Source: Candidatus Parcubacteria bacterium
GTDB lineage: Bacteria; Patescibacteriota; Patescibacteriia; Patescibacteriales; UBA12075
Direction: 5' to 3'
DNA: 64,000 nucleotides
Assembly (NCBI GenBank): GCA_963814275.1
Contig: CAWFCE010000002.1
Location: 1,195,263 to 1,259,262, forward strand
Position 1 is the stretch's first letter. Every line of letters begins with the position of its first letter. Positions 24,920-43,251 of this stretch are shown piece after piece. A program made the position numbers and the translations under genes. A model generated the notes under the pieces. The model was given only the letters and a program-made list of their open reading frames with translations, had not been told where the DNA came from and did not search any database.

Positions 24920-25780
24920 TTATAATAAATCCCCGATTTCGTCAAATTTATTTACTGCAACTTTAGTATAAATTTGAGTGGTTTCCAGGCGAGCATGGCC
25001 CAGCAAAGACTGAATATATCTTAAGTTTACACCATTTTCTAAGAGGTGGGTAGCAAAGCTGTGGCGCAATGAATGAGCAGAAACCCGTTTTTTGATCCCG
25101 GCCCGATTTGCGGCCTCGGTGACAATTTTCTGGATGGTCCGAACCGTCAATTTCCCGGCCGAACGGAAGCTTTCGAACAAGAATTCGGCCGGATCATAGC
25201 CGCGGATGTATTGCCCGATGTTTTCCAACACTGTCCCGGACACGATCGTCACCCGGTCCTTGTTGCCCTTGCCGGCCTGGATCCGGATTATTTTTCGGTC
25301 AAAGTCGATATCATAAACCCGCAAATTCACAAGTTCGCTCACCCGCATGCCGGTGGTATAAAGCACCTGGATGATGAGTTTATGTTTTATATTTCCTGCT
25401 ACCTCTATCATCCCAATGATTTCTTTTTTCGCCAGCACAACCGGTATCCTGGAGCCCATTTTGGGCCGCTTGATCCGGATTTCCCCGGCAAAAAAATTCC
25501 TCTTTAAAATTTGCGTGTAATAGAATTTAATGGCGTTGATCGCCAGGTTCAAGGTCGCCGGCGCCCGGCCGCTCACCAGAAGCCAATCCAGATAATCTTT
25601 TATATCCTGCGCGTTTAAATCATCGCTGAATTTGTTTGCAAATCTAAGCAATTCCTTGGTATAATAAACATAAGCCTTTACCGTTTTTTGGCTATAATTC
25701 CGTATTCTCAATTCCTGCTCCAAGTTATAAAACAAATCCCTTTTTAAAGTAGTAGAACGATTTAAATCTGATGGTAGCAT
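24920..25780 (-). CDS. tyrosine recombinase, integron-integrase-like N-terminus but Xer-sized (array 1 recombinase)
   Basis: 286 aa. SAM-like core-binding domain (IRNYSQKTVKAYVYY..., RIPVVLAKKEI); catalytic set TGMRVSE, GKGNKDR, HSLRHSFATH, LLGH, QIYTKV. It is divergent from and 78 bp away from the first GTTRRRY site. Confidence 0.85.
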   Translation of the reverse strand: MLPSDLNRSTTLKRDLFYNLEQELRIRNYSQKTVKAYVYYTKELLRFANKFSDDLNAQDIKDYLDWLLVSGRAPATLNLAINAIKFYYTQILKRNFFAGEIRIKRPKMGSRIPVVLAKKEIIGMIEVAGNIKHKLIIQVLYTTGMRVSELVNLRVYDIDFDRKIIRIQAGKGNKDRVTIVSGTVLENIGQYIRGYDPAEFLFESFRSAGKLTVRTIQKIVTEAANRAGIKKRVSAHSLRHSFATHLLENGVNLRYIQSLLGHARLETTQIYTKVAVNKFDEIGDLL

Positions 25781-25850
25781 ACCTTAATTAGCTAACATAT
25801 TTATATAATAATTTTAACTAATTTTTAACAAAAAATCAACAAGTTCAGAT

Positions 25851-25864
25851 ATAACCAGTTAGAT
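25851..25864 (+). other. attI-like site of array 1 (ATAACCAGTTAGAT)
   Basis: First GTTRRRY box (GTTAGAT, 25858-25864) after the recombinase gene. The ATAACCAGTT prefix is shared with array 2 (58890-58899). It is complementary to the R'' of cassette 1. Confidence 0.5.
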
Positions 25865-25902
25865 GAAATAATTAAATTATTTTCTGCTACGCAGAAAAAT
25901 TA

Positions 25903-27126
25903 TTGGGGCAAATTTATTTTTTTTATGAATATGAAGAAAAAATTCAAAAACCAACTCCTGAAAACAATCAAGAGTCACAAGCTGATATTTTACCTGAAAC
26001 ATACACCAAAGCCCGCACTCAAGAGATTAATCAGCAAATTAATTCATATCAGGGACCAAAAAACTCTGTAGATTTGGTATCCAAAACCAAAGAGATACAA
26101 GAAAACTACAAGCAATACATGGAAGAATCAGATGCTGAAGGAAGCCAAGAAACATTACAGCTTTTTCAAAAAAAAATGCAGGCAGAGATTGATTTCTATA
26201 AAAAAGAGTTTGATAAATTTAATGATCTGCAAAGGCTAGAAACCGTCTCTAATATATTAAAACCAGAAGATTTTCAGCTCTATGAAAAAATTCTAGGCAA
26301 CAAGGAAGGAAACACAGATGATTTATTTGATTCCCGCGGTAAAGTAATTCACGCCACAAATTCAACTGCACTAGATATAATATCTGATGTTAATACAATT
26401 TCTGGAGGAACAAGGCAGCTTGGACCTTCTTTCTCTGACGGAGATCACGACATCGCAATCACTTTTAATCTTGTGTGGGAAAAATTAAAAACGCCAGGAG
26501 GCATAGATAAAACCCACAAAAAAATTGACCTTGATGAATATCCACAATTCCCCAGTAAATATAATGAATTTGTTGATTGGGCAGTGCAAAGATTAAAAAA
26601 TGAATATGGCGAGGGAGAAAAGTTTGAAATGGAAAAAAACAAACTTCTTGCAAAAGCTGAAAAACATAACGAAGATAAATCAGTCCTCCACGATACTGAA
26701 GAACAGTACACTCAAGAATTAAAAGATATGGCATATGGCACGCTTAAACCGAAGTGGATAAAAGACGGGCTTAGCGAAGAAGAAGCTGAAAATAAAGTAA
26801 AAGAATATATTGAAAATCAAAACCATTTTAAAAACAGGCTAAAAAACCGACCTCAAAATGAAGTAGCCTTCCCTGTTACACTTGCATTTATTAAAAATGA
26901 GCTACCTGAACTTGTGCCTGAAGGTGGTGAAAGAGAATTTGAACTAAGAACAGAAGAAGAAATTAAGCTTGATAATGCCTCTACCATATTTGTTCCTGAA
27001 AAATATCTAAATAGCAGACTTGTTAGAAAAATAAATCAGGTTTATCCTAATATAGACATAAGAACAGAGGAGGAGTTGGAATTTGTAAGAATGAATAAAT
27101 TATTAAATAAAATAAATTTGCCCTAA
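25903..27126 (+). CDS. hypothetical Lys/Glu-rich protein (cassette 1)
   Basis: 407-aa ORF. Start uncertain: the TTG at 25903 lies inside the cassette inverted repeat and the first in-frame ATG is at 26119. Confidence 0.5.
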   Translation: MGQIYFFYEYEEKIQKPTPENNQESQADILPETYTKARTQEINQQINSYQGPKNSVDLVSKTKEIQENYKQYMEESDAEGSQETLQLFQKKMQAEIDFYKKEFDKFNDLQRLETVSNILKPEDFQLYEKILGNKEGNTDDLFDSRGKVIHATNSTALDIISDVNTISGGTRQLGPSFSDGDHDIAITFNLVWEKLKTPGGIDKTHKKIDLDEYPQFPSKYNEFVDWAVQRLKNEYGEGEKFEMEKNKLLAKAEKHNEDKSVLHDTEEQYTQELKDMAYGTLKPKWIKDGLSEEEAENKVKEYIENQNHFKNRLKNRPQNEVAFPVTLAFIKNELPELVPEGGEREFELRTEEEIKLDNASTIFVPEKYLNSRLVRKINQVYPNIDIRTEEELEFVRMNKLLNKINLP

Positions 27127-27162
27127 TAATAACTCGCTTCGCTCGTTGAATTTAATTACATC

Positions 27163-27254
27163 ATCTAACAGCGTGTATACGGTTCGCGCTTGGCTATCGC
27201 CAAATGCTCACCCAAATTTGCTTCGCAAACTTCGTATACACACGAACGTTAGGC
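27163..27254 (+). repeat. attC-like site 1
   Basis: R'' ATCTAAC (27163-69) is the reverse complement of the upstream GTTAGAT. It is followed by stem GTGTATACG / CGTATACAC, GGTTCG, hairpin H1 TTGGC-TATC-GCCAA, CACCCAAATT, hairpin TTTGC-TTCG-CAAA and ACTTCG. R' is GTTAGGC (27248-54). Confidence 0.75.
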
Positions 27255-27318
27255 GCAACAATAAAAAGCCTCTTTAATTAATTTAATAATTTTGGCAATT
27301 TATTTGCCCAATAAAACT

Positions 27319-27702
27319 ATGATAAAACCAGACCAAAATTTAGGAAAATTTTTTTCCAAAGAAGACCAATCCATTGAAAAGGAAACTGATTTAAAACAAC
27401 TTCAAGATTTCGCCGTATTATACCATGAAAAAAACATGCCTGAAGATCAGGAGAAAAAATTTATTTCATTGGCGCAAAAATACATAGACGAGAATCATGA
27501 TGGAACATACTATAATGAAGGCAATACAGATTATATTTATGTGCAACTTCCAAACGGACTATACTTAGAAGCTGATGCACATCTCAGAAGTAACACCTTT
27601 TATTTTTCCGGAGTACTATCAAAAGAAGATGCAGAAAAAAGAATAGACATGTTAGCAAAACAACGGGAAGAAGATATAAAAGCAGCTTTAGATAAAGAAT
27701 AA
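27319..27702 (+). CDS. hypothetical protein (cassette 2)
   Basis: ATG at 27319. The track start at 27292 reads through the cassette inverted repeat. 127 aa. Confidence 0.5.
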   Translation: MIKPDQNLGKFFSKEDQSIEKETDLKQLQDFAVLYHEKNMPEDQEKKFISLAQKYIDENHDGTYYNEGNTDYIYVQLPNGLYLEADAHLRSNTFYFSGVLSKEDAEKRIDMLAKQREEDIKAALDKE

Positions 27703-27842
27703 ACAAATTGCCAAAATTAATTTAAATAGCGGAGGAGGCTTTTTATTACTCGCTCCACTCCGTTCCGCGCCGCGCTGCGCTCTCACCCTCAAATTTTATG
27801 ATTATTAACTTTAATAAGGTATAAAATTTGAGTCTTCGGGGC

Positions 27843-27941
27843 GTATAACAACGCGATATACGGTTCGGCCCTCGGCCCGGGCCTCACCCAAATTGCAATC
27901 CCCTTCGGGTCTTGCAACTTCGTATATCGGTGATGTTGTGT
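27843..27941 (+). repeat. attC-like site 2
   Basis: Degenerate R'' GTATAAC; CGATATACGG / CGTATATCGG stems; GGTTCG; H1 GGCCC-TCG-GCCCGGGCC; CACCCAAATT; H2 GCAATCCCC-TTCG-GGTCTTGC; ACTTCG. R' is GTTGTGT (27935-41). Near-identical to site 14 except for H2. Preceded by an extra hairpin module at 27749-27842. Confidence 0.7.
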
Positions 27942-28006
27942 GAAATAATTAAATTATTTTTGCTCCGCAAAAATTGTTAGGGCAAATTTATTTAATCTTT
28001 AATCTT

Positions 28007-28456
28007 ATGAAACTCTATCATGGTTCACCAAATAGTTTTGATACAATTCGTAAAAGTCAGGCGCAAGCAGGTGATGATATTAAAGTGCCAGATGATGAAT
28101 TATTAAACGCGATTTATTTAACCCCAAATTATGAATTTGCTTTGGCCATCGCTTCGATGCCGGAAGGTGCTGCCAACATCGACAATGAAACCAAAACAAT
28201 CAAGTTTGAAAATCCTGAAGCATTCGACCCAGAAAAAGAAGTTTATATTTATGAAGTTGATAGTGAATTAATCCCGAAAGAAAATTTAAAAGAAGTTGAC
28301 GAGCTTCAAATTGCGATTTTAAACACCGATGAAATAAAGCCAACAATAAAACATGTTTGCAAAGCTGGTGATGTTGAGAAATATTATGAAATAAAAAAAG
28401 AAATTTTAGAGGCTAAAAACGAAACTAAAATATCACCTGAGTTCAAGATTAAATAA
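28007..28456 (+). CDS. hypothetical protein (cassette 3)
   Basis: ATG at 28007 (MKLYHGSPNSF). The track start at 27974 lies in the inverted repeat GGGCAAATTTATTT. Confidence 0.5.
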   Translation: MKLYHGSPNSFDTIRKSQAQAGDDIKVPDDELLNAIYLTPNYEFALAIASMPEGAANIDNETKTIKFENPEAFDPEKEVYIYEVDSELIPKENLKEVDELQIAILNTDEIKPTIKHVCKAGDVEKYYEIKKEILEAKNETKISPEFKIK

Positions 28457-28500
28457 ATTTGCCCTAACAACTCGCTATCGCTCGTTAATTTAATTACATC

Positions 28501-28627
28501 ACACAACACCGCGATAAACGGCTCGGTCTTTATTCAAAGACCTCGCGCAAATTTCTGTTTTCTCTTTTGTGATTAATTTAATAATGTAGAGAAGACAGAA
28601 ACTTCGCTTCATCGGGAAACATTATGT
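28501..28627 (+). repeat. attC-like site 3
   Basis: R'' ACACAAC is the reverse complement of the upstream GTTGTGT. CCGCGATAAACGG / CGCTTCATCGGG stems with conserved bulges; GCGCAAATT; long H2 with an ATTAATTTAATAAT loop; ACTTCG. R' is ATTATGT. Confidence 0.72.
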
Positions 28628-28686
28628 GAAATATGTTTTTACTCTTGGGCTAACGCCCCAACTTTTATATAATAAATTTAATTTTT

Positions 28687-29136
28687 ATGAATAACCTAAA
28701 ATATACGAAACCACTAAACATTTTTTTGCTTTTAGTAGCTATTGTCTTATTAGCTGGTTGCTCAAATAAATATTTTGAAAAAAATTTGGAGTGCGAGAAA
28801 CAAAAAGACATGCTTCAATACAACAGCGATAATTACAGCAAGGATACCAACACAATTATCAGTAAAATTCAAAAAGTATTTTACAGTCCAAAAGCAAAAA
28901 AATGTTTGTATGTTAGTGTCTCTGCAATCGATTTTAATTCGCCTAATAATATGACTGCTCTAACACAGAAAGACTATTCAGACGGAGCAAGATGGAAGCT
29001 CCGGACAATTTCAGGCGAATTAGTTGAAGATTTGCTAATTAACACTGAAGATGAAAAAATGGCTGTTTTTGGAGCAGAGCCACAACATACAGATTCATAT
29101 GAAGAATTTGAAAACCTTGTTAAAAAATGGGAATAA
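28687..29136 (+). CDS. putative lipoprotein (cassette 4)
   Basis: 149 aa. Signal peptide with lipobox LLAGC. Confidence 0.55.
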   Translation: MNNLKYTKPLNIFLLLVAIVLLAGCSNKYFEKNLECEKQKDMLQYNSDNYSKDTNTIISKIQKVFYSPKAKKCLYVSVSAIDFNSPNNMTALTQKDYSDGARWKLRTISGELVEDLLINTEDEKMAVFGAEPQHTDSYEEFENLVKKWE

Positions 29137-29200
29137 AAAATTAAATTTATTATATAAAAGCAATTCCGCATAAGCGGAATTAAGAGCAAAAACATACATC

Positions 29201-29657
29201 ACATAACAATGAATATGCGGTTCACAAATTAAAAATTATTCCTTATAATTATCAAAATATATGAAAAAAATATTAGTATTCGCGGTCGTTGTCTTGTTAA
29301 TAATTTTAGTGTTTAGCTGGTGGAATAAATCCCCAGAAGCTACATGGCAGGGTTCCTATTACAAACACGGACAACAAGAAAACGAAGTGTATGGACCAAT
29401 TTTTACTAATTTTGATGGCTGTAAAGCGTGGGCATTAGGAAAAATAGTTTATAACGACGACACAGCTAACTGTAGTAAAAATTGTCATGACGCTTTGGGA
29501 GACGGCACCCCTGTGTGTGAGGAAGTTGTTAGAAATTGGGCACCGCTTCCGGGCAGTTACACTTTTGATAATTATAAGGAATAATTTTTAATTTGTTCAC
29601 CCAAATTTTTGTTCCGCTTCGCTACACAAAAACTTCGCATATTCATAAACGTTAGGC
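29201..29657 (+). repeat. attC-like site 4, split by a nested cassette (29225-29595)
   Basis: R'' ACATAAC matches the upstream TTATGT. L'' AATGAATATGCG (29208-19) pairs with L' CGCATATTCAT (29636-46). The insert is flanked by GTTCAC (29220-25 and 29595-600) and sits immediately 5' of CCAAATT. R' is GTTAGGC (29651-57). Confidence 0.72.
29261..29584 (+). CDS. small secreted/TM-anchored Cys-containing protein (nested cassette)
   Basis: 107 aa with an N-terminal hydrophobic helix. The ORF is bracketed by a perfect 32-bp inverted repeat (29225-29256 / 29564-29595), whose right arm encodes the last 6 codons plus the stop. Confidence 0.55.
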   Translation: MKKILVFAVVVLLIILVFSWWNKSPEATWQGSYYKHGQQENEVYGPIFTNFDGCKAWALGKIVYNDDTANCSKNCHDALGDGTPVCEEVVRNWAPLPGSYTFDNYKE

Positions 29658-29689
29658 GAAATAAATTTTTCGCTACTAATTTTAAACAT

Positions 29690-30283
29690 ATGAAAAAATT
29701 CTTTTTGGGCTTCGCAAGCTCGTTATTAATCACAATTCCCCTGATCGCTTTTTCTGCTGATTCACTGTCTACAAAACTAAAAGGAAAAATTTTGTTAGCA
29801 GTAGAAGATAAGGGTAAAACTTATTATGTCAATGAAGATGGAAACAGATACAGAATTACTGTTTCTACTGCACAAAAAATATTTGAAAAACTTGCATTGG
29901 GCATTACAAATGAAAATTTAAGTCAAATTCCAGAAAGTAACGTAGGTATCGACCCAGAAGAAAACAGCACCCAGGAAAATTGTGCTGCGCAAGAATCAGA
30001 ATTAAATGATTGGAAGAATTTGAATACAAAAAATGAAAATACCCTCAGTTCTTGCCTTAACACCCTCACTAGCTTGAAGGATTCTTATGCAGACCTAATT
30101 AACAAATACGAAGATTGCATAGGTGAGTGCAATTATGGCCCTACAGTTGATGCACTCATCGCCCAAAATAACGAGCTTGCTAAACAAAATGATGAACTTT
30201 TAGCTATATCTATTTACTGGGAAAATAGTGCTAACACATGGAAGGCTTACGCATATGGTTGCACTGGCTATACTAGTCAATAA
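29690..30283 (+). CDS. secreted protein with KGKILLxVExxGxxYYV motif (cassette 6)
   Basis: ATG at 29690 (MKKFFLGFASSLLITIPLIAFS signal peptide). The track start at 29609 reads through attC-like site 4. Confidence 0.55.
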   Translation: MKKFFLGFASSLLITIPLIAFSADSLSTKLKGKILLAVEDKGKTYYVNEDGNRYRITVSTAQKIFEKLALGITNENLSQIPESNVGIDPEENSTQENCAAQESELNDWKNLNTKNENTLSSCLNTLTSLKDSYADLINKYEDCIGECNYGPTVDALIAQNNELAKQNDELLAISIYWENSANTWKAYAYGCTGYTSQ

Positions 30284-30336
30284 AATTAGTAGCGAAAAAT
30301 TTACTCAAGGGTTCGCTCCTTGAATCCGCTCACCTC

Positions 30337-31028
30337 GCCTAACGCGGCGTATCTGGCTCCGCTGGCCGTAAAATAATTAATTTTTTTATGACGATATTAA
30401 AGCCCAGAAATAAACCTGGCTCAAATAGTTTGCAAAACAGATTAGGTGGAGCAGTTTATAATTTTCTGGACAAAGCAAAAAATAATGATAAATTTTTGTT
30501 AGACTACGAAAGGATTAAAGGTAAATGTACCTCTGGCAATTGGCAAATTAATGATTATTCTCCAATACTTTTGCCATTGGTTAAATACTATGAAAATAGC
30601 TTGTGGTTTATTTGTGATAAATTAGGCATATTTAACCAGATTAATGACGGCAAAAAACCCCATAGCTTAAGGGCATTTTTCGACACAAAAGAAACAGAAA
30701 TAAATATTTGGCTTTCTTCAAAAATTAATGATAATCTTAAATATAAAAAATTGTCCAGAAAATTATTTTCAACAATCGACGATTATGTTCAGAGAAATGA
30801 AGTTGTTCATTGCAACGAAATCATATCCTTTCCCGATTTGAGCAATTACGATAGTTTGCTTACTAAATTAAAAGAATTAGTTGAACTTTTATTTAATCAC
30901 AATTTATTACAAAAAAATTAATTATTTTACTAGCTCCGCCCAAATTTCGTTTCCGCTTTTTGTTGGCGCATCCGCGCAATTATAACAAAAAGCTACAACG
31001 AAACTTCAGATACGCCGAAATGTTATCG
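30337..31028 (+). repeat. attC-like site 6, split by a nested cassette (30363-30932)
   Basis: R'' GCCTAAC is the reverse complement of the upstream GTTAGGC. L'' GGCGTATCTG (30346-55) pairs with L' CAGATACGCC (31007-16). The direct repeat GCTCCGC occurs at 30356-62 and 30933-39, the latter abutting CCAAATTT. R' is GTTATCG (31022-28). Confidence 0.72.
30388..30921 (+). CDS. hypothetical protein (nested cassette)
   Basis: 177-aa ORF flanked by the 20-bp inverted repeat GTAAAATAATTAATTTTTTT (30368-87 / 30911-30). Confidence 0.5.
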   Translation: MTILKPRNKPGSNSLQNRLGGAVYNFLDKAKNNDKFLLDYERIKGKCTSGNWQINDYSPILLPLVKYYENSLWFICDKLGIFNQINDGKKPHSLRAFFDTKETEINIWLSSKINDNLKYKKLSRKLFSTIDDYVQRNEVVHCNEIISFPDLSNYDSLLTKLKELVELLFNHNLLQKN

Positions 31029-31120
31029 GAAATAAATTTTTTATCTTGGTGGTAATTTCAAGGTTTGCGCGTTTTGCCAAGACGAAAATTTGATTTTTTA
31101 TTTTTTAAAGAGGGGTAATT

Positions 31121-31609
31121 ATGAAATTAACCAAAGAAACTACCTCGGAAAAACTTCTTGATTTTGGCAAACAGATTTTCGAGATTTTACAAAGACTAGA
31201 TACCTCACCAATCGTTTACGGTAGTTTGGCATATTTTTATCATACGAAAGATACTAGTTTCCCGATTAGAGACATTGATTTGCTTTTGCCAGAATCAAAT
31301 TTTTCAAAAATATCTGAAATGCTCGACAAAGAAAAAAATGTCACATACAATGTGATGCCATATCATAGTATAGAGGTATTCAGAGACGGTCTCGAAATCG
31401 ACATCGATTCTATCGAACATTTTTTAGATCCGAGATCTAGAGAATTTCATAAATCAACGATAAACGACCTCGATTTGAATATTTTAAATAAAGAGTCCTT
31501 GGCAAGCATTTACAAAGAAGCCTTGGATAACATGCCGCAAGAGAAAAAACTCGATGAAAAAAGAAATAAGTATCAAAAGAAGTTAGACAATCTCCAAAAA
31601 TTACTTTAA
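31121..31609 (+). CDS. hypothetical protein, possible minimal nucleotidyltransferase fold (cassette 8)
   Basis: 162 aa with SD AAGAGGGG. YGSLAYFYH...IRDIDLLLPE resembles the GS...DxD motif of Pol-beta-type nucleotidyltransferases; this is a weak call. Confidence 0.4.
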   Translation: MKLTKETTSEKLLDFGKQIFEILQRLDTSPIVYGSLAYFYHTKDTSFPIRDIDLLLPESNFSKISEMLDKEKNVTYNVMPYHSIEVFRDGLEIDIDSIEHFLDPRSREFHKSTINDLDLNILNKESLASIYKEALDNMPQEKKLDEKRNKYQKKLDNLQKLL

Positions 31610-31734
31610 TAAGGAGTTTTTATTTTTGGCCATTCACCCCTACCCCTCTGGCCAAAAATAAAAACAAAAAATCAAATTTTCTTTTAACGTAGAAAAGCTA
31701 TCGGCCAGTAGCATGGAGATAAAAAATTTACATC

Positions 31735-31921
31735 CGATAACACGGCACATGCGGTTCAGAAATTTCTCGTTTTTTAGACTTTTCAATTAAGGTATGAGAA
31801 ATTTCCTCTCCCAAATTGCGCTGACTATATGGAAAGTTTAGTGGTATAATCAAGTTAAGCGATAATCAATAATTTTATCAATAAATAACGGCGCAACTTC
31901 GCATGTGCCGATACGTTAAAT
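31735..31921 (+). repeat. attC-like site 8
   Basis: R'' CGATAAC is the reverse complement of the upstream GTTATCG. GGCACATGCGG / CGCATGTGCC stems; GGTTCA; H1 GAAATTTCTC...GAGAAATTTC; CTCTCCCAAATT; long H2; AACTTCG. R' is GTTAAAT (31915-21). Confidence 0.72.
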
Positions 31922-32016
31922 GAAATTGGCTAATTGTTTAGTGTACACCATAGATGACACTATAGTGTACACTAATGTGGTAAATCAAAGTTAATCGCGA
32001 GCCAACTTCACTTAAC
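31916..32016 (+). other. conserved ORF-less cassette, copy 1 of 3
   Basis: GAAATTGGCT...TTAATCGCGAGCCAACTTC-ACTTAAC with internal palindrome TAGTGTACAC-N16-GTGTACACTA. Homologous copies are at 59441-59542 and 61297-61396. Confidence 0.6.
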
Positions 32017-32534: not shown

Positions 32535-32559
32535 GAAATTTATTTTCAATTTAAAATTT

Positions 32560-34772: not shown

Positions 34773-34800
34773 GAAATAATTTATCAATAATTAAATTTCT

Positions 34801-35150: not shown

Positions 35151-35232
35151 TTATTGATAAATTACTCAAGGGGGCGCTGCGCTTCAGGTCTGCCTTTTAC
35201 AATTAATAATATTGAGAGCAGACCTGACCCTC

Positions 35233-35331: not shown

Positions 35332-35359
35332 GAAATAAAAATTTAATTATTTTGCTACC

Positions 35360-36079: not shown

Positions 36080-36107
36080 GAACGCAAAATAATTAAATTT
36101 TTACATC

Positions 36108-36186
36108 GTACAACACTGAATATCTGGTTCCGTTATCGCTCCACCCAAATTGCTGACGCAACTTCAGATATTCAGAAACGTTATCG
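36108..36186 (+). repeat. attC-like site 15 (shortest, 79 bp)
   Basis: R'' GTACAAC is the reverse complement of the upstream GTTGTAC. CTGAATATCTGG / CAGATATTCAG stems; GGTTCC; CCACCCAAATT; hairpin GCTGACGCAA; CTTCAG. R' is GTTATCG (36180-86). Confidence 0.75.
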
Positions 36187-36253
36187 GAAATATTGCTCAT
36201 TAAAATATTTTTTTGTAAGAGGGCTTGAAATTAACTATCAAAGGAGGATTGTA

Positions 36254-36544
36254 ATGAAGAAAAAATCTTTACACAACGTTGGAGATTTGGTCGTATTTAA
36301 TGAAACCAAAGAATTTGGGAACAAAAATGACCGTATATTTCACATCCACGCCATTCGATATGGCAAATGCACTGGAATTCCTAAAAAACAATATTGGTTC
36401 GCTGGTTTCCTGCTGGAAATTGGAAAACACGAGAGTGAGGGTTTACCTCAAATTCCAGTTTTTGCAACAACCTTAACCAACGCTTCCGAAAATCAATTGA
36501 GTTCATTAGAGCATCTACAATGCCGTTTCAACCCATGGAAATAA
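36254..36544 (+). CDS. hypothetical protein (cassette 16)
   Basis: 96 aa. SD AAAGGAGGA upstream of the ATG. Confidence 0.5.
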   Translation: MKKKSLHNVGDLVVFNETKEFGNKNDRIFHIHAIRYGKCTGIPKKQYWFAGFLLEIGKHESEGLPQIPVFATTLTNASENQLSSLEHLQCRFNPWK

Positions 36545-36651
36545 TCTACGCCCTTTGTCTTCGCGGGAATAAACAATATTCCCGCCCTCTTTTCAAAAAA
36601 ATATTTTTGCTGGCTTATCAGCCAACGGCTATCACTAATGAGCAATATATC

Positions 36652-36759
36652 CGATAACAGCACGCTATCCGGTTCGCGCTTGCCCTGTCGGGCAAATGCT
36701 CACCCAAATCCCGACTCCGATTCACTACATCGGGACTTCGGATATCGGCATATGTTATG
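36652..36759 (+). repeat. attC-like site 16
   Basis: R'' CGATAAC is the reverse complement of the upstream GTTATCG. Family shared with sites 18, 23 and 24 (GCACG.TATCCGG ... CCGATATC). H1 stem TTGCCC/GGGCAA. R' is GTTATGT (36753-59). Confidence 0.75.
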
Positions 36760-36815
36760 TGAAATTTAAGTTGTGGCCTTAATTAAATTTAATATATTCA
36801 ATAACTTCTCTCTTA

Positions 36816-37208
36816 ATGATAAAACAAGTTTCATTGTTAATATTATTTGATAAAGATAAGCGCATTTTATTGCAACATCGTTCCGAAGATCAAGAAGGAT
36901 TACCTGGCTATTGGGCTTTTTTTGGTGGTCATATTGAAAACGGCGAAACACCAGAGCAGGCATTACTGAGAGAGTCTGAGGAGGAATTAGAGTATATGCC
37001 GGAAAACCCCCGCCTAGTTATGACTCAGGATTTTATGCACGACAATATACGACATAGAAAATACGTTTATTTAGAGGAATATAATAACAGCAAACTTGTT
37101 CAACACGAGGGTCAAGCTATGGGATGGTACCATTTAGGCGAAATACAAAAATTAAAAATGGTAGACCACGACCGAGAAGTTATTGATTATATTAAAAACA
37201 AATATTGA
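36816..37208 (+). CDS. NUDIX hydrolase (cassette 17; duplicated at 60271-60663)
   Basis: 130 aa. Nudix box [23 protein letters not shown]. Protein sequence identical to the array 2 copy. Confidence 0.85.
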
Positions 37209-37227
37209 GTGCCACAACTTAAACATC

Positions 37228-37433
37228 ACATAACACCGCGATAAGCGGCTCCAGAAAATTTTCTTTATTAATATTAAACAGGAATAAAATTTTCTACCGG
37301 CCCAAATTTCATTTCAGTTTTCTGATGAACGTTCAATAAACGTTCATCGCTCCACGATTGTCTGATATTGATAATAATCGATTCTAAAACGGAAAACTGA
37401 AGTGAAACTTCGCTTCATCGGGAAATGTTAAAT
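37228..37433 (+). repeat. attC-like site 17 (206 bp)
   Basis: R'' ACATAAC is the reverse complement of the upstream GTTATGT. Long branched H2. R' is GTTAAAT (37427-33). Duplicated with the NUDIX cassette in array 2. Confidence 0.72.
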
Positions 37434-37497
37434 GAAATATCTAAAACAAATTCCCTATCGGGAATTTTATCTGCAAGTTTATAATTAATTTTCTTAT

Positions 37498-38160
37498 ATG
37501 AAAAACAAATTTTTTTTACTATTAATCTTAGTCATTATCTTAGCTGGGTGCAATAAACAAAACACAAGTATTAATTTAACCCCAGATAATCAAACTAAAA
37601 ATATTTCAAACTCAACAAACGATACTAATACATCAATACAGGAAAACGTAGAAGCAAAAAACAATATTCCCGAAGAAAAACCAACAGAAATTAAGCAAGA
37701 AGACGATATAAAAATACAAAATATTAATAATAAAAAAAGTTATCAAAATTTAACAACTGGGTTTAGCTTAGAATTTCCAGAGGCATTAATATTCAGGAAT
37801 AACGCTTTTTACACCGAGGTAAACTGGGACGGTATTGTAAATAAAAAAACTGACCATATGTACGTTCCTGAATTTACTGTCCGTTTTGCATCTGATGTGT
37901 CATTAGATGAATTTATTTATAATTCGATTAACCCAAATTATAAAAATCATTTTAATTCAAACAAAAACAAAATCAAAGAACAAAAAACAATAGGAAATAA
38001 TAAATTCTTTATGATAAACAGTAAAAATTTTGATAGCAATGGTTGTAGTTACTATATAGAAAATAATAAAAATATAATGAGATTAAGTACCGCATATAAC
38101 TGCGGTGAAAACGAATTAATAGAAAACGTTTTGATATCTATTAAAACAACAGAAAATTAA
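37498..38160 (+). CDS. putative lipoprotein (cassette 18)
   Basis: 220 aa. Signal peptide with lipobox ILAGC; Asn/Lys-rich. Confidence 0.55.
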   Translation: MKNKFFLLLILVIILAGCNKQNTSINLTPDNQTKNISNSTNDTNTSIQENVEAKNNIPEEKPTEIKQEDDIKIQNINNKKSYQNLTTGFSLEFPEALIFRNNAFYTEVNWDGIVNKKTDHMYVPEFTVRFASDVSLDEFIYNSINPNYKNHFNSNKNKIKEQKTIGNNKFFMINSKNFDSNGCSYYIENNKNIMRLSTAYNCGENELIENVLISIKTTEN

Positions 38161-38212
38161 TTATAAACTTGCAGATTATTTTTGCTATCGCAAAAATGGT
38201 TTTAGATACAGC

Positions 38213-38318
38213 ACATAACAGCACGATATCCGGTTCGCGCTTTCCTTCGGAAAATGCTCACGCAAATCCCGACTCCGTTTCACTGCGTCGGGACTTCGGA
38301 TATCGGCATACGTTAGGC
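38213..38318 (+). repeat. attC-like site 18
   Basis: R'' ACATAAC has 2 mismatches to the upstream GTTAAAT. Paralog of site 16 with a compensatory H1 stem TTTCC/GGAAA. R' is GTTAGGC (38312-18). Confidence 0.68.
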
Positions 38319-38347
38319 GAAATTTAAAATTTATCTTTATCTCAATT

Positions 38348-38638
38348 ATGTCATTAAACAAACTAAAACATTTTAAAAAACCTTGGGTAATTGGTCTTAT
38401 TGTTGGTATAATCCTAGCCATCGGAAATATATTACTTGCCGGAATTCCAGGGATTATCTTATTTGAAAACACTTTAGATCCGGTACAATCAATTTCTGGT
38501 TGTGCAGGAGAAGACTGTTGGGGTCCATCTGCACTTTATGGTAGTGTAATTTTCTTAATTGTCGGGTTTTTATTTGGTTACCTTGTTGGAATATTTATAA
38601 ATAGATCCTTGAGCAAAGTAGATAAAGATAAATTTTAA
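38348..38638 (+). CDS. small membrane protein (cassette 19)
   Basis: 96 aa, 3 TM helices. The 3' end (GATAAAGATAAATTTTAA) is part of the cassette inverted repeat. Confidence 0.5.
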   Translation: MSLNKLKHFKKPWVIGLIVGIILAIGNILLAGIPGIILFENTLDPVQSISGCAGEDCWGPSALYGSVIFLIVGFLFGYLVGIFINRSLSKVDKDKF

Positions 38639-38712
38639 ACTCAAGGGGGCGCTGCGCTTTCGTCCCGCCCTTTGAATAATATAATTTAATATTGTAGGCG
38701 TGACGAACCCTC

Positions 38713-38811
38713 GCCTAACACCGAGTATACGGAAAAAGGCTCAACTCGCCTTTTTCCCAAATTCGCCTTCGTTTCACTCCGGCGAACTTCGTATACTCGG
38801 AAACGTTATCG
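38713..38811 (+). repeat. attC-like site 19
   Basis: R'' GCCTAAC is the reverse complement of the upstream GTTAGGC. CCGAGTATACGG / CGTATACTCGG stems; H1 AAAAAGGC...GCCTTTTT; CCCAAATT. R' is GTTATCG (38805-11). Preceded by a hairpin module at 38640-38712. Confidence 0.75.
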
Positions 38812-38845
38812 GAAATTACACTTTTTAAAAAATAATTTTATTATT

Positions 38846-39511
38846 ATGAACCATAAACTAAAACCCTTAATCTATAGTTTGATATTTGCTACACCAATAT
38901 ATTTATATGCCACATACGTGTTTAGCTATATTCCAGATTATGATAGTAGCTTTCCTTTTGACAAAGAAGCGTTTTTCTTTGTCCCAGTCTTAACCTATGG
39001 CATCTCAATATTGCTATTCCACATAATTTATATGAAAGCTACAATAAATATTGTTAAAGGTTTTAACGAATACAAAAGAAACAACAAAAAAAAGTATTTA
39101 TATCAAAATTTATTCACCTTTTTGATAGTTTTATCATTCGCCCACCTGTCTTTGGTGGCGCCAAGATACATGCAATCAATAATATTCGTACTTTATTTAA
39201 TAATTTATATTTTAATTATAAAAATCCCCAATCAATACCTTCGCGCTGAATTCAATAACTATAAAAAATATTTTAGAGATGCTAATATATTCAACTTTGT
39301 ATTATCATTCGTGGTTCTTATAAATACTTTTTTATTTATTAGATTCGCAGGAAATATTACCGGAAACGAGGTAGGTGACTTTTTGGCCCTAGTTTATACG
39401 AGTGGATTTTTGTTGTTTCTTTTGTTTGCTTCATTTGTCGTAAATGTATTTATATTACTAATTCATAAAAATTATTTAACAAAAAAACATAACCAACCAC
39501 AAGGTTCATAA
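38846..39511 (+). CDS. polytopic membrane protein (cassette 20)
   Basis: 221 aa with about 6 TM helices. Confidence 0.5.
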   Translation: MNHKLKPLIYSLIFATPIYLYATYVFSYIPDYDSSFPFDKEAFFFVPVLTYGISILLFHIIYMKATINIVKGFNEYKRNNKKKYLYQNLFTFLIVLSFAHLSLVAPRYMQSIIFVLYLIIYILIIKIPNQYLRAEFNNYKKYFRDANIFNFVLSFVVLINTFLFIRFAGNITGNEVGDFLALVYTSGFLLFLLFASFVVNVFILLIHKNYLTKKHNQPQGS

Positions 39512-39589
39512 TAATAAAATTATTTCTTTATTTGGGCTATTCGCCCAAATGTCCTTCCCTATCGGTCAGGACTAAAAAGTGTAACTGTC

Positions 39590-39726
39590 CGATAACAGCG
39601 TATATCAGGTTCCGACTCCCCTGTCGGTGAGCCTCCACCCAAATTCGGTCTCCATAATTTGCTGGTGCTCCGCACAATTTTAGAAAATTACTACGACTGT
39701 ACTTCTAATATACGCATATGTTAGAT
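39590..39726 (+). repeat. attC-like site 20
   Basis: R'' CGATAAC is the reverse complement of the upstream GTTATCG. GGTTCC; CCACCCAAATT. R' is GTTAGAT (39720-26). Confidence 0.7.
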
Positions 39727-39763
39727 GAAATGACTCCATATTCATTACGTCACATCATCTAAC
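39721..39763 (+). other. minimal ORF-less cassette (43 bp)
   Basis: TTAGAT-GAAATGAC...GTCACATC-ATCTAAC: just a short inverted repeat between an R' and the next R''. Confidence 0.5.
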
Positions 39764-40325
39764 ACTGTGTAACTGGCTCCGCTAAATAAATAATTTCATT
39801 TCAATATTATGGCTTACTATAACAAAATCGGCTTATTGATTTTAAATGAAAATGCTACTAAATTTCTTGTTTGTGAGCCTGGCAACCTGTATAAAAATAA
39901 AAACGTTACTCAGTATTTAATGCCCGGCGGGAAATACGAAGAAGATTCTGTCGAGGATTGTTTAAAATCCGAAACAAAAGAAGAGCTTGGTTGTGAATTG
40001 GACATAAGCAGTGTTAAATATATTAATGAATACCTCGACGTAGCCGCGGCAAGCCCCAATCGCGATGTCTCAATTCGTTTATATGAAGGAAAACTCATTG
40101 GCAAACCCGTTCCCTCAACTGAAATAGGCGCTCTTCATTGGATTGGAAAAAGAGACGTTAATAATGAAAAAGTTTCTGCCATAATAAAAAATAAAATAAT
40201 CCCCGATTTAGTGGAGAAAAAAATATTGAAATAAAATTATTTATTTAGCTCCGCCCAAATTTTTGAAATAATTAATTAACTTGATAAGGAATTTCAAAAA
40301 CTTCAGTTACACATAAACGTTAGAT
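39757..40325 (+). repeat. attC-like site 21, split by a nested cassette (39783-40247)
   Basis: R'' ATCTAAC. L'' TGTGTAACTG (39766-75) pairs with L' CAGTTACACA (40305-14). The direct repeat GCTCCGC occurs at 39776-82 and 40248-54, the latter abutting CCAAATTT. R' is GTTAGAT (40319-25). Confidence 0.72.
39809..40234 (+). CDS. NUDIX-like hydrolase (nested cassette)
   Basis: 141 aa. Nudix-box-like PGGKYEEDSVEDCLKSETKEELG. Flanked by the perfect 15-bp inverted repeat CTAAATAAATAATTT (39782-96 / 40234-48). Confidence 0.6.
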   Translation: MAYYNKIGLLILNENATKFLVCEPGNLYKNKNVTQYLMPGGKYEEDSVEDCLKSETKEELGCELDISSVKYINEYLDVAAASPNRDVSIRLYEGKLIGKPVPSTEIGALHWIGKRDVNNEKVSAIIKNKIIPDLVEKKILK

Positions 40326-40398
40326 GAAATAAATAAATGCTTTTCGGCTAACGCCGAAAAATTATTCGGGCAAATATTTATTATTCAATACTAAAAGA

Positions 40399-40944
40399 AT
40401 GAACAAAAAAATAATATTGACGTTAAGCATTTTAGCCCTTATGGCTATCGGGCTCTATTTCTGGATTGTTAACAAATATCAACCTAAACCTGAAACAAAT
40501 ATCCCACTGGTTAATCAACCGGTTGTGGAAGATGCACAGATGGACGAAACTAAAAAAATTGACAATTGGCAGACTTATACAAACAAAGATTATGGTTTCG
40601 AATTCCAATACCCAAGTGATTTAAAGAAAAAAGATAATCATTATTATTTTTTTGATCTAGTAAATAAGCAAGTTACAATACATATAGATATTCTTGATGA
40701 AAAATTTGATATTAATAATGTAAAAAGCCCTATTGGATACGTCCCAAAAGACACAATCAGTGAAACCACAATTAATGGAATTAAAGCCTACTTCTTTAGT
40801 GATGGTGACATGGGTGCAGGGGGAAATAGCTATAGAATGCCAATCGACGAAAATCATACTTTACTTATTTGGTTTGTTACAGAAGGCGGCCCATACCAGA
40901 ACGAAAATAAAATTCTTTCAAGTATAAAAATATTGAATAAATAA
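40399..40944 (+). CDS. TM-anchored extracytoplasmic protein (cassette 23)
   Basis: 181 aa with an N-terminal TM helix. Confidence 0.5.
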   Translation: MNKKIILTLSILALMAIGLYFWIVNKYQPKPETNIPLVNQPVVEDAQMDETKKIDNWQTYTNKDYGFEFQYPSDLKKKDNHYYFFDLVNKQVTIHIDILDEKFDINNVKSPIGYVPKDTISETTINGIKAYFFSDGDMGAGGNSYRMPIDENHTLLIWFVTEGGPYQNENKILSSIKILNK

Positions 40945-40991
40945 AATTTGCCCAAATAATACTCGCTATCGCTCGCGAATTTATTTACATC

Positions 40992-41095
40992 AGCTAACAG
41001 CACGATATCCGGTTTGCGCTTACCTCCGGCAAACGCTCACCCAAATCCCGATATCGCTTCGCTCATCGGGACTTCGGATATCGGCAATGTTATCG
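40992..41095 (+). repeat. attC-like site 23
   Basis: R'' AGCTAAC has 1 mismatch to the upstream GTTAGAT. Family of sites 16, 18 and 24. R' is GTTATCG (41089-95). Confidence 0.7.
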
Positions 41096-41149
41096 GAAAT
41101 AGGAAAAAAAATATTTTCTTCCAGAAAATACAAATTATTTTTGAAAATT

Positions 41150-41187
41150 AAAAAGCCTCGTGGTTACTTAAGTATTATCCACGAGGC
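41150..41187 (-). terminator. rho-independent terminator of the reverse-oriented cassette gene
   Basis: GCCTCGTGG...CCACGAGGC hairpin followed by a T-run on the minus strand. Confidence 0.55.
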
Positions 41188-41205
41188 CAATTAAACGGTT
41201 TTATT

Positions 41206-41460
41206 TTATCTATCTGTAAAATATGGGCATCTACCACAATAAGTAGATACTTCCTCCTTAGATCTTGGAGGTCCTGGATTACAGTACGACAAGTAACACG
41301 AACCTTCTTTGCCCAATTGCCAGTGTTTGCACAACACTTTTGTGCGACCGTCAAGGTAAACATTAACAATTGCTTGACAGGGCTTGTCAAAGACATTCTT
41401 TCTTGACCTGTCTGCCCCCATACAAGGAACTATATGTGATTGTAATAAAACACTTTCCAT
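41206..41460 (-). CDS. small Cys-rich protein (reverse-oriented cassette 24)
   Basis: 84 aa. Strong SD (AAGGAGGAATC-ATG on the minus strand); 8 Cys including CGRC. Confidence 0.55.
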   Translation of the reverse strand: MESVLLQSHIVPCMGADRSRKNVFDKPCQAIVNVYLDGRTKVLCKHWQLGKEGSCYLSYCNPGPPRSKEEVSTYCGRCPYFTDR

Positions 41461-41609
41461 GATTCCTCCTTGTTCAGTTATAATATTTCCAAAAATAATT
41501 TAAAAATAGTGCGGGATTTTATAGCGTTTAAAACTAACATCACAGATATTATATTTTACACTTTTTAGGAAGAAAGTCAAGACACTATTTCCTGTTTTTT
41601 ACTACTATC

Positions 41610-41697
41610 CGATAACAGCCGATATCCGGTTTGCGCTTACCTCTGGCAAATGCTTACCCTTCGCTACTCGGGACTTCGGTTATCACAAACGTTAGGC
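41610..41697 (+). repeat. attC-like site 24 (CCCAAAT core partly deleted)
   Basis: R'' CGATAAC is the reverse complement of the upstream GTTATCG. Aligns with site 23 but lacks about 6 nt of the central motif. R' is GTTAGGC (41691-97). Confidence 0.65.
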
Positions 41698-41786
41698 GAC
41701 ATTTGCGAGCGTGTTAATTTGTCTACAGGATCCTAACAAAAAATAATTATAAATAAAGATTATTTTTAAACAAAATTTGTATAAAT

Positions 41787-41921
41787 ATGAAAAAAAACAT
41801 AAAACAGGCAATTAAAATTCACCAACAAGGTTTTCTTCCGATAGTAGAAAAATATATTAGGAATAAAAATCTTTTAGATGTTGGCTGCGGGAATGGATTA
41901 AATTCATTTTTCTTAATATAA
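41787..41921 (+). pseudogene. truncated SAM-methyltransferase fragment (cassette 25)
   Basis: A 44-codon ORF ending just after motif I (LLDVGCGNG). It runs directly into a 5'-truncated attC-like site lacking R''. Confidence 0.5.
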
Positions 41922-41924
41922 AAC

Positions 41925-42047
41925 TTTCTCTTACGCATTCGCTTCAGAGAAATTATAATATTGAAATTCTTTCACCCAAATTTTGCAGATGAATATAAAT
42001 ATTAATAAGGTATCTGCAAAACTTCGCAACATGCGGATATGTTCAGC
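41925..42047 (+). repeat. attC-like site 25, 5'-truncated
   Basis: TTCACCCAAATT, H2 TTGCAGATG...TCTGCAA and ACTTCG are present, and R' is GTTCAGC (42041-47). No recognisable R''. Confidence 0.5.
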
Positions 42048-42094
42048 AAAATCGTGCGCCTTCGCTAACGCTCGGCGCTTCGATCTTGCTGAAC
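42042..42094 (+). other. minimal ORF-less cassette (53 bp)
   Basis: TTCAGCAAAATCG...CGATCTT-GCTGAAC. R'' GCTGAAC (42088-94) is the reverse complement of the upstream GTTCAGC. Confidence 0.5.
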
Positions 42095-42165
42095 GGTCGC
42101 GGTGCCCGAATCAGTTAAATAAAATAGCCTCGGCCATTATTCTTGTATCAAAGTATTGACAACGT

Positions 42166-42196
42166 AAAAAAGCCGCTACTTAATTTCACGGCTTTT
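42166..42196 (-). terminator. possible bidirectional terminator downstream of the reverse gene
   Basis: AAAAGCCG...CGGCTTTT hairpin with an A-run and a T-run on either side. Confidence 0.45.
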
Positions 42197-42271
42197 GAAT
42201 GGACTATCTCACTTTACACGGAACATCTGGTCCGTAAAAAGGAATTTAATAAATTGAACCCTTTTTACAGT

Positions 42272-42754
42272 TTACCTGGCTATGCGTTTGTAAATGAAAA
42301 AAGGCATTAACATGATGATTAGCTCCCTGCTCCACCATTCCCATTTTGTACGAGTGCGTTTTTGCCCTGATTCGACGCAAAACCACTCATTAGAATATAG
42401 TCTCACTTCTTCACATGCGTTAACCTTAATTTGTGCGCCAGCTTCTCGGACAGCATAAGTCAGATCCCTAACACAGCGCCACATGTGAGGTTTTGCGGCT
42501 ACAATCAAAAGATTTGTAATTCCTCTACGCATTGCCCACTGAACAGCCCCCCTTGCTATTCGCAAAGTAGGCGGCGGATAACCTGGTTGTTCTTTCGTAA
42601 ATTCAACTTCAATTTTCGGCTCAACCATAACGTCAACCTGAGTATATACTGGTGCGCATAATTCCCTGGCTTTCCGCGAAGCGATTTCAGAAATTAACCT
42701 ATTTGAGAGTAAAGAACTTGGTACCCCAAATGCTTGTGCCACTATTCCTTCCAT
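42272..42754 (-). CDS. hypothetical 160-aa protein (reverse-oriented, last unit of array 1)
   Basis: SD AAAGGAGGTTCAAT-ATG on the minus strand. GC content is higher than in neighbouring cassettes. Confidence 0.55.
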   Translation of the reverse strand: MEGIVAQAFGVPSSLLSNRLISEIASRKARELCAPVYTQVDVMVEPKIEVEFTKEQPGYPPPTLRIARGAVQWAMRRGITNLLIVAAKPHMWRCVRDLTYAVREAGAQIKVNACEEVRLYSNEWFCVESGQKRTRTKWEWWSRELIIMLMPFFIYKRIAR

Positions 42755-43251
42755 ATTGAACCTCCTTTGTTTGTATAGCCAGATTTTACTTTATAACATA
42801 TTTTATAATATTTGTCTATAGTAAAAACAAAAAAATATTAAAAGGGCTCTAAAATAAGGTATGTTATTTGTTAAATTTCTTTTCACTACACCCAAATTTC
42901 ATTTATCCTTTTATCAATAATTATAATAAGCTATAATAAATAAAACTTCCGATACTCCGATATGTTCAGAGAAATAATAAAAAATCTTTTTTGTCGTATG
43001 CATGTTTAAAAAAATTAAAAGGAAGTGATTTTATTTAAATATCCTTGGAAAGAACAAAGGGATGAACCCAAAAGAATTTATGCGGTATCTGGATGGAATG
43101 AAGCCTAAAATTATTATAACGAGCAGTTTCAACTTTATTCACCTCATTCCGCTCCCTGCTGCGCATGGCCTGCGGGCCACGGTTCACCACGCAACAAACG
43201 GCTTACCAAATTCTTTATCTTTATTCTTAACCATATATAGTAAAATATAAT

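Follow-up and report, generated by a model that had tools for sequence, protein, structure and literature searches.

Class 1 integrons and the chromosomal integron of Vibrio cholerae carry a tyrosine recombinase gene, an adjoining attI simple site (RYYYAAC-NN-GTTRRRY) from which it is transcribed divergently, and a one-directional array of mostly small cassettes of hypothetical function. The cassettes are separated by imperfect palindromes (attC sites, conserved more in structure than in sequence) bounded by an RYYYAAC box (R'') and a GTTRRRY box (R'), with crossover at G|TT of R' and an R'' that is complementary to the R' of the preceding junction. We analysed a window of 64,000 nucleotides (the whole stretch of DNA under study; contig CAWFCE010000002.1 of assembly GCA_963814275.1, positions 1,195,263 to 1,259,262) from a Candidatus Parcubacteria bacterium, a member of the Candidate Phyla Radiation (CPR; Patescibacteria), and compared an integron-type gene-cassette array and its neighbouring tyrosine recombinase gene with these systems. 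The array is real and resembles canonical integrons in each of the above respects, and its site sequences are homogeneous within the lineage, as in sedentary chromosomal integrons. It differs in its CPR host and in an integrase that lacks the IntI-specific domain of ~42 residues, so that the locus would work like an integron while failing one defining feature. The sites also differ from canonical attC in forming a three-way junction with conserved CACCCAAAT and ACTTCG, in an R box extended by cassette-specific stems of 10-25 bp and in the presence of open reading frames (ORFs) inside some sites.

Archaeal integrons (Ghaly et al., 2022; PMC9668308) are similar in that arrays occur outside the classical hosts in small-genome uncultivated lineages, mostly without a recognised integrase; however, the IntI-specific domain is present in the six archaeal IntIs described there, and it was with the standard attC model that the sites were detected. 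Clusters of attC sites lacking integron integrases (CALINs) differ from the present locus, in which the array has a dedicated recombinase, consistently linked to it. Archaeal XerA/dif, XerS and XerH give the best profile and fold match and have a short enzyme of two domains that lacks both an arm-binding domain and an insert, but Xer enzymes act on a single double-stranded dif of 28-30 bp at the terminus, whereas here there are two paralogues, tens of structured sites and no skew switch. In CTX phage a folded single-stranded hairpin is recombined by one-strand exchange. An Xer-type enzyme also inserts DNA modules in the integrative mobile elements exploiting Xer (IMEX) and the pdif modules of Acinetobacter, but these rely on host XerC/D and dif-like 28-bp cores in place of the integron-type boxes found here, and pdif sites alternate in orientation, unlike those in the window, which all share one strand and measure 79-220 nt or more.

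Layout, boundaries and complementarity of the arrays

The features that carry the comparison are as follows, with positions counted from the first nucleotide of the window.

24920-25780, minus strand: recombinase 1, 286 amino acids, transcribed away from array 1; Pfam Phage_integrase and SAM_4.
25781-25864, plus strand: attI-like region 1, ending ATATAAC-CA-GTTAGAT, with the first crossover GTT at 25858.
25858-42970, plus strand: cassette array 1.
34766-35331, plus strand: cassette in common with the relative L001, 95.9% identical over 609 bp.
36754-37433, plus strand: NUDIX cassette, recurring in array 2 at 60209-60888, 97.2% identical over 709 bp.
57970-58782, minus strand: recombinase 2, 270 amino acids, 40% identical to recombinase 1 and without the insert.
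58783-58903, plus strand: attI-like region 2, ending ATAACCA-GTTGTAC, with the GTT at 58897, 115 bp from the start codon.
58897-64000, plus strand: cassette array 2, divergent from recombinase 2 and running off the window end.

Array 1 comprises 22 same-strand units between 23 GTTRRRY boxes (25858 to 42964), fewer than the roughly 26 units counted in an earlier note made from the sequence alone. As that note had described, the ORFs are short and nearly all on the plus strand, the first GTT (25858) is 78 bp away from the start codon of the recombinase (25780) and the region is more AT-rich than its surroundings (GC 0.30-0.38 across 26-43 kb compared to 0.40-0.55 in both flanks). The intervening long imperfect palindromes have a strongly strand-specific signature. 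A covariance model (R1), of the kind the earlier note had proposed, was built from 24 compact sites, taken from the window and two relatives; it returned 26 matches in the window, all on the plus strand and all confined to 27.1-43.0 kb and to another AT-rich block, 59.3-62.4 kb. A generic attC finder, in which duplex energy served as the score for any AAC...GTT pair whose arms are complementary, was rejected as non-specific, with about equal matches in the flanks and on both strands. The two arrays together occupy ~22 kb of the window.

Two shared cassettes define where the units begin and end. Identity between the NUDIX cassette and its copy in array 2 runs from GTTATGT, after unrelated L' arms, to the next R', where AAAT changes to AGGC. 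Identity between the cassette at 34766-35331 and its counterpart in L001 runs from acGTTAGGC to gatGTT, followed by GTAC in the window and ATAC in L001. Cassette edges in both L001 and array 2 therefore coincide with GTT boxes, which is the result anticipated by the proposal that units are exchanged at G|TT of R', and since identity extends from the upstream GTT to the downstream GTT in both cases, the crossover is placed at R' rather than R''. In both cassettes the polarity is canonical, in that the downstream palindrome moves with the ORF. At the DNA level the recombinase and glycosyltransferase genes share only 75-76% identity between the window and L001, compared to 95.9% for the cassette, and the cassette at 34766-35331 therefore moved long after the hosts diverged.

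The R'' boxes displayed the same logic of exchange between neighbours. The outer four R'' bases are the exact reverse complement of those of the preceding R' in 17 of 21 array 1 junctions (the 17 matches noted earlier stand, although the junctions number 21 and not 22), and, also as noted earlier, R'' matches its own R' at one site only (39757-40325). When the order of R'' boxes was permuted in 300,000 trials the mean number of matches was 2.6 and the maximum 11, which disposes of chance as the source of the pattern. Four independent arrays of other genomes gave a match to the preceding R' in 17 of 28 adjacent pairs, with 2.8 expected. The complementarity between neighbours is thus real and far beyond chance; it is the classic footprint of integron cassettes and not new in itself. 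We rejected it as proof, taken alone, of crossover at R', since crossover at R'' predicts the same pattern.

Within single sites the outer four R-box positions are mostly unpaired and the AAC and GTT of the boxes are invariant. The L''/L' stem, in contrast to the R boxes, co-varies within the junction as the earlier note had stated: across its 12 pairs 92.9% are paired, with changes on both sides in 8 of 12, and the covariation score of 0.272 exceeds both the shuffled value (0.124; reached in 0 of 500 shuffles) and the values obtained when partners were slid (0.02-0.08).

Recombinases without the IntI-specific domain and their relatives

No tyrosine recombinase genes other than those of recombinases 1 and 2 are present in the window. 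The best family model for recombinase 1 was NF040815 (249 bits; cut-off 220), which NCBI names 'site-specific tyrosine recombinase/integron integrase' and which is also the XerA model. The integron integrase model TIGR02249 matched below its cut-off (208.8 bits; cut-off 265) and in two separate stretches. Recombinase 2 scored 202.8 bits with NF040815 (below the cut-off of 220) and 197.5 bits with TIGR02249, again in two stretches, and the XerC and XerD models were far below their cut-offs for both proteins. Among solved structures, recombinase 1 matched XerA (4a8e; 162 bits), VchIntIA (2a3v; 159 bits in two stretches) and E. coli XerD (100 bits). An AlphaFold model of recombinase 1 (mean pLDDT 81) contains no helix between residues 196 and 212 and gave XerA (5hxy) and VchIntIA (2a3v) as best fold matches, the latter requiring ~30 extra gap columns. 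Recombinase 1 is nearest to archaeal XerA and the integron integrases.

This protein has a 31% identity to IntI1 over 256 residues, which correspond to 297 IntI1 residues, and the two have a C-terminal SPLD-type tail in common. In an alignment of both window proteins and six relatives (A8), all eight display a 42-residue gap opposite ARAWW...FAQH of IntI1 and all retain R146, K171, H236, R239, H262 and Y271, which marks recombinase 1 as an intact tyrosine recombinase. The missing stretch is the IntI-specific domain, which lies around patch III and is absent from recombinases 1 and 2. The earlier note had called the enzyme divergent; it is indeed a tyrosine recombinase beside the array, but the term understates the difference, as this domain is wholly missing. 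The domain is a defining feature of integron integrases and is required by IntegronFinder as a second profile (PMC9668308; PMC8138268). The best 120 homologues of recombinase 1 are all 276-295 amino acids in length, and the named close homologues are from Falkowbacteria, Parcubacteria and the 'Patescibacteria group', names that by themselves point to a CPR host.

The two attI-like regions have a common core, ATAACCAGTT. Region 1 is kept in the relatives L001 and L083 up to the first GTT and is divergent right after it, the pattern that an attI should show. L001 (enzyme 74% identical, same downstream gene) and L083 (62%) have the same site family in arrays that are upstream and divergent. Four further homologues (57-63% identical), picked only for their long contigs, gave 32 R1 matches, all upstream on the divergent strand. 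The divergent layout of recombinase and array was found in L001, L083 and L093-L096, and in eight of eight closely examined platforms the recombinase heads a divergent array with a conserved attI core. Distant CPR loci from Peregrinibacteria, Paceibacterota and Nomurabacteria (43-44% identical) have the same sites and arrangement; in these and in two archaeal-labelled loci the first GTTRRRY is about 100-130 bp from the gene, and in the CPR loci it is followed by GAAAT. A scan of a genome collection with the family alignment gave relatives that were 37-47% identical among the matches listed, and a scan of metagenomes gave 10 loci. Across the loci compared, the link between this short recombinase clade and the arrays is firm.

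The archaeal-labelled contigs are from metagenome-assembled genomes (MAGs), one of them labelled Woesearchaeota (L058 7717-7816; L062 43-140), and carry the same recombinase type with near-identical Y-shaped sites containing CACCCAAAT and ACTTCG. A model search of eight archaeal loci with filters off gave no match beyond L058. The archaeal link rests on these two contigs and on MAG binning, and mis-binning may account for it. An inverted layout, with sites downstream on the strand of the gene, was observed in relatives from Thermodesulfobacterium, Bacillota and Spirochaetota (L003 7101-7200 and 9503-9611; L015 11628-11766 and 15196-15332; L025 12737-12846), most of which have an N-terminal extension of ~100 amino acids with the motif ISGRKWNP..K.W..P. 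A Nitrospirae relative (L004 3962-4037) has the same inverted layout, and its N-terminus is not delimitable. Very large cassettes were present in L093 (255-9801), encoding a 1480-amino-acid AAA/NACHT-like ATPase, a 1019-amino-acid protein and an HNH nuclease, and these look like defence genes. In the window, an HD-domain ORF (24300-24746) separates recombinase 1 from the glycosyltransferase gene, and is not in the syntenic locus of L001.

Site folding, proposed mechanism and competing explanations

Each site consists of a 5' half (RYYYAAC, a short spacer, the L'' arm, GGYTC) and a 3' half (CACCCAAAT, a small hairpin, ACTTCG, the L' arm, GTTRRRY), followed by GAAAT. Folded as DNA it adopts a Y shape. 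From the R box the structure passes through a short spacer, an L stem of 9-11 bp, a TT bulge contributed by ACTTCG and a GTT/AAC helix of 3 bp, and opens into a junction with hairpin A, the unpaired conserved CACCCAAAT and hairpin B. The spacer is ~1 nt on the R''-L'' arm compared to 3-4 nt on the L'-R' arm, and one purine is bulged on L''. Folding of both strands, as the earlier note had suggested, placed most unpaired bases on the L'-R' arm. In canonical attC the flipped-out bases belong instead to the L'' arm, where extrahelical bases of the bottom strand set the choice of strand. Of 24 sites, 20 gave a more stable fold for the bottom strand (p = 6e-5), and top-strand mismatches comprise 17 A.C against 8 G.T; folding of bottom-strand DNA is therefore favoured over that of top-strand RNA.

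The ends of each cassette are also matched to one another. When the 45 nt after each R' were paired with the 45 nt before the next R'', the R-box helix was extended to 9 bp, followed by a 2x2 internal loop (GAAAT opposite ACATC) and the cassette-specific stem. A cassette's own ends gave -17.2 kcal/mol compared to -7.2 for mismatched ends, and the flanks alone gave -10.9 compared to -6.0 kcal/mol (p = 2e-7).

We consider it very probable that the locus is a chromosomal gene-capture platform working like an integron, and that the window holds two of them. Such a platform would comprise the tyrosine recombinase gene, an attI-like core 80-115 bp upstream of it with the double-stranded form (A/T)ATAAC-NN-G|TTRRRY, and the one-directional array, each cassette being a unit of TTRRRY, cargo, long imperfect palindrome and final G. 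The palindrome would fold in single-stranded DNA and the recombinase would exchange one strand at G|TT of R', excising the cassette as a circle for re-insertion at attI. In the circle, R'' would pair perfectly with the R' tail from the cassette start and the stem formed by the cassette ends would clamp the cargo into a loop. Anatomy, covariation, cassette boundaries, movement between arrays and between genomes, and the association of this recombinase clade with the arrays are established by sequence comparison; the acting enzyme, the single-stranded substrate, the strand used and the mode of recognition we infer. The extra domain of IntI-type enzymes grips the flipped-out bases of canonical attC, and since the recombinase here has no such domain, recognition of strand and site would probably depend on other conserved unpaired features.

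Several points weigh against this gene-capture reading. The IntI-specific domain was reported to be necessary for IntI1 activity (Messier and Roy, 2001, as cited in PMC9668308) and essential for integron function (PMC8138268), and an insert-less enzyme could therefore act on folded sites only by recognising them differently. The L'-R' arm has most of the unpaired bases, opposite to the arrangement in canonical attC, which makes the strand used uncertain. The R1 model was built from its own site family, so its matches indicate family membership and not function, and scans of both attI regions found no cassette promoter above shuffled sequence. Every catalytic step is deduced from nucleotide and protein sequence. 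Terminator scans of both attI regions were likewise no better than shuffled sequence. A promoter-like match (TTGCAA-18-TATAAT with TG; 25636-25665, plus strand) was observed inside the recombinase 1 gene, facing array 1, at the place expected of an integron cassette promoter (Pc, in or near intI/attI); shuffled sequence gave matches of this kind at least as often.

The alternative that survives best, although clearly improbable, is that another enzyme builds the arrays in trans, for example a canonical IntI in the community or a hairpin-recognising HUH nuclease, and that the neighbouring recombinase does something else. CALINs are common and are assumed to be serviced in trans (PMC9668308). 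The position of the recombinase at the head of a divergent array with a conserved attI core in all eight platforms, and the same arrangement in the distant CPR loci, argue against this, and no other such recombinase or nuclease gene was seen in the window, in a search that covered tyrosine recombinases only.

A housekeeping Xer role, in the resolution of chromosome dimers, is very improbable. Here the array would be a pile-up of IMEX-like insertions at the enzyme's own dif, or a set of dif modules. Single-recombinase Xer systems have dif next to the gene, and CTX phage inserts into dif in the form of folded single-stranded DNA. The XerA model NF040815 is the best match to recombinase 1, above its cut-off, and candidate-phyla recombinases were placed in an Xer-like 'Cand' group presumed to replace Xer (Smyshlyaev et al.; PMC8138268). 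On the other side stand two paralogues that lie 33 kb from one another and head separate arrays; sites that all point in one direction, unlike alternating dif modules; sites that are structured palindromes of 80-200 nt and not dif cores of 28-30 bp; and an array headed by the enzyme in every close relative examined. Cumulative GC skew falls steadily across the window and both loci with no terminus-type switch, and a dif or terminus location was rejected on this skew and the two loci. The paralogue, the attI core, the arrays of relatives and the skew together rule out a chance neighbour and make the housekeeping Xer/dif role unlikely.

It is highly unlikely that the array is a fossil, left by a canonical integron in which intI decayed when the extra domain was deleted. 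The identity to IntI1 and the common SPLD-type tail fit such an origin, but the insert is missing in all eight aligned members, the best 120 homologues are uniformly short, the catalytic residues are invariant and cassettes moved recently (96-97% identity). The least credible explanation is that the palindromes act in RNA as terminators or untranslated-region structures, or are selfish miniature repeats in an immobile array: stems do lie between ORFs and covariation alone fits folding of DNA or RNA, but cassettes were exchanged exactly from GTT box to GTT box, complementarity is swapped from one junction to its neighbour, the mismatch and stability data favour the non-coding strand and no terminator-type T runs are present.

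With an insert-less recombinase and three-armed sites, a standard integron finder would probably miss such arrays, or would probably label the locus a CALIN where the attC model fires and the recombinase fails the IntI-specific profile. In the literature searched, mostly without subscription journals, we found no report of CPR integrons or of arrays served by an integrase without the domain. In a permafrost study of 2026, attC was undetectable on 97.4% of the contigs that carried 'integron-type' recombinases, and its authors' guess was that novel attC sites were the cause (PMC13323075); the locus gives this guess a concrete, testable form. If the enzymes are active, a plain Xer-like fold would suffice for structure-specific single-strand recombination, which bears on the origin of integrons from Xer, current surveys would undercount integrons and mislabel arrays as integrase-less, and a noticeable part of the ~1-Mb genomes of CPR bacteria, in which few mobile elements are known, would be given over to storing cassettes.

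A wider reading is tentative and, taken as a whole, somewhat more likely to fail than to hold. The locus would be the type example of a large unrecognised integron class with an insert-less IntI/XerA-like integrase and a Y-shaped attC, which would be the main gene-capture device of CPR bacteria and occur also in some DPANN-labelled archaea and other phyla. Folded single-stranded DNA would be read via CACCCAAAT and the TT bulge and not by a flipped-base pocket, the class might preserve the ancestral state before gain of the domain, arm A might serve as a second insertion point, and many 'CALIN' arrays and the large surplus of 'integron-type' recombinases without detectable attC in metagenomes (PMC13323075) would be accounted for.

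Inventory of sites, cargo and minor features

The sites of array 1, all on the plus strand, are listed with their R1 scores where a match was recorded.

27163-27254: site 1, ATCTAAC...GTTAGGC; 74.2 bits; Y-shaped fold.
27843-27941: site 2, GTATAAC...GTTGTGT; 84.1 bits; R'' mismatched to the preceding R'.
28501-28627: site 3, ACACAAC...ATTATGT; 80.9 bits.
29201-29657: site 4, ORF 29261-29584 in arm A, L''/L' 8-mers complementary; 3' part 46.5 bits.
30337-31028: site 5, ORF 30388-30921 in arm A; GCTCCGC at 30356 and 30933.
31735-31921: site 6, CGATAAC...GTTAAAT; 57.9 bits.
32010-32534: site 7, minus-strand ORF 32124-32363 in arm A; 3' part 24 bits.
33420-33573: site 8; 80.5 bits.
33956-34073: site 9; 84.6 bits.
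34628-34772: site 10; 80.0 bits.
35233-35331: site 11; 95.7 bits.
36108-36186: site 12, the shortest (79 nt), folded; 70.0 bits.
36652-36760: site 13; 90.4 bits.
37228-37433: site 14; 70.9 bits.
38213-38318: site 15; 93.4 bits.
38713-38811: site 16; 71.5 bits; fold z-score -4.8 to -5.6.
39590-39726: site 17; 66.1 bits.
39757-40325: site 18, NUDIX ORF 39809-40234 in arm A; GCTCCGC at 39776 and 40248.
40992-41095: site 19; 90.5 bits.
41610-41697: site 20, CCCAAAT motif lost; 53.7 bits.
41974-42047: 3' half-site, CACCCAAAT...GTTCAGC; no 5' partner found.
42088-42970: last site, degenerate, GCTGAAC...GTTCAGA, with minus-strand ORF 42272-42754 inside; 3' part 21.2 bits.

Array 2 gave matches at six sites.

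59348-59446: 79.5 bits.
59536-60215: 17.8 bits.
60683-60888: 55.9 bits.
61146-61302: 72.0 bits.
61390-61775: 26.1 bits.
62244-62355: 74.5 bits.

The platform that contains these six sites (57970-64000) lies 33 kb from the first and has one 97%-identical cassette in common with array 1.

Palindromes of 80-210 bp, as described in the earlier note, account for most sites of array 1, but five sites are 457-883 bp long and each encloses a whole ORF. The RYYYAAC...GTTRRRY pattern of that note similarly held for most palindromes and not for every one, the departures being ATTATGT (28621), the last two boxes (GTTCAGC and GTTCAGA), the 3' half-site and the degenerate last site. The R'' of the last site matches the preceding GTTCAGC. 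A whole ORF takes the place of hairpin A in at least five array 1 sites, in two array 2 sites (59536-60215 and 61390-61775) and in sites of L001 and L083. These arm-A ORFs encode 79-177 amino acids on either strand, and each insert is closed by its own inverted repeat of 13-18 bp (17 bp at 29226/29578 in site 4), often between direct repeats of a junction motif (GTTCAC at 29220 and 29595 flanking the site 4 insert; GCTCCGC in sites 5 and 18). ORF modules may have a second insertion point in arm A, or the arm may simply be very long.

A conserved ORF-less stretch of ~100 nt (GTTAAATgaaattggc...gccaacttcACTTAAC) always precedes a site with an ORF in arm A, and the ORF differs each time. It forms an R-side hairpin directly before site 7 (31915-32016) and recurs at 59440-59542 and 61296-61396 in the window, and on the minus strand at 1898-1999 in L001 and 7700-7804 in L083.

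Most array 1 cargo proteins have no family match, in agreement with the mostly hypothetical cargo noted earlier. Those with a match are a SAM methyltransferase, a SET-domain protein, an Amidase_2 protein and two NUDIX proteins, and the cargo is typical of chromosomal integrons. If the arrays are a cassette store, its contents in the window include cell-wall amidases, NUDIX hydrolases and methyltransferases. Towards its distal end array 1 is decayed, with a half-site, a truncated ORF and the degenerate last site; within 41787-42047 a 44-amino-acid remnant with a VGCGNG methyltransferase motif is followed by the unpartnered 3' half-site.

Two elements that look like a 3' half-site (CTCACCCTCAAATT-hairpin-TCTTCG), at 27775-27849 and 62183-62250, are each joined directly to the R'' that follows. 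This R'' is in both cases mismatched to the preceding R', and the fusions may be scars of deletion between sites. Finally, some cassettes have an extra GC-rich hairpin just 5' of R'' (35162-35232, 38639-38712 and 59266-59347), with the sequence ctcaag..cgctgcgc..ggcctgcc-loop-ggcagacc..ccctc.

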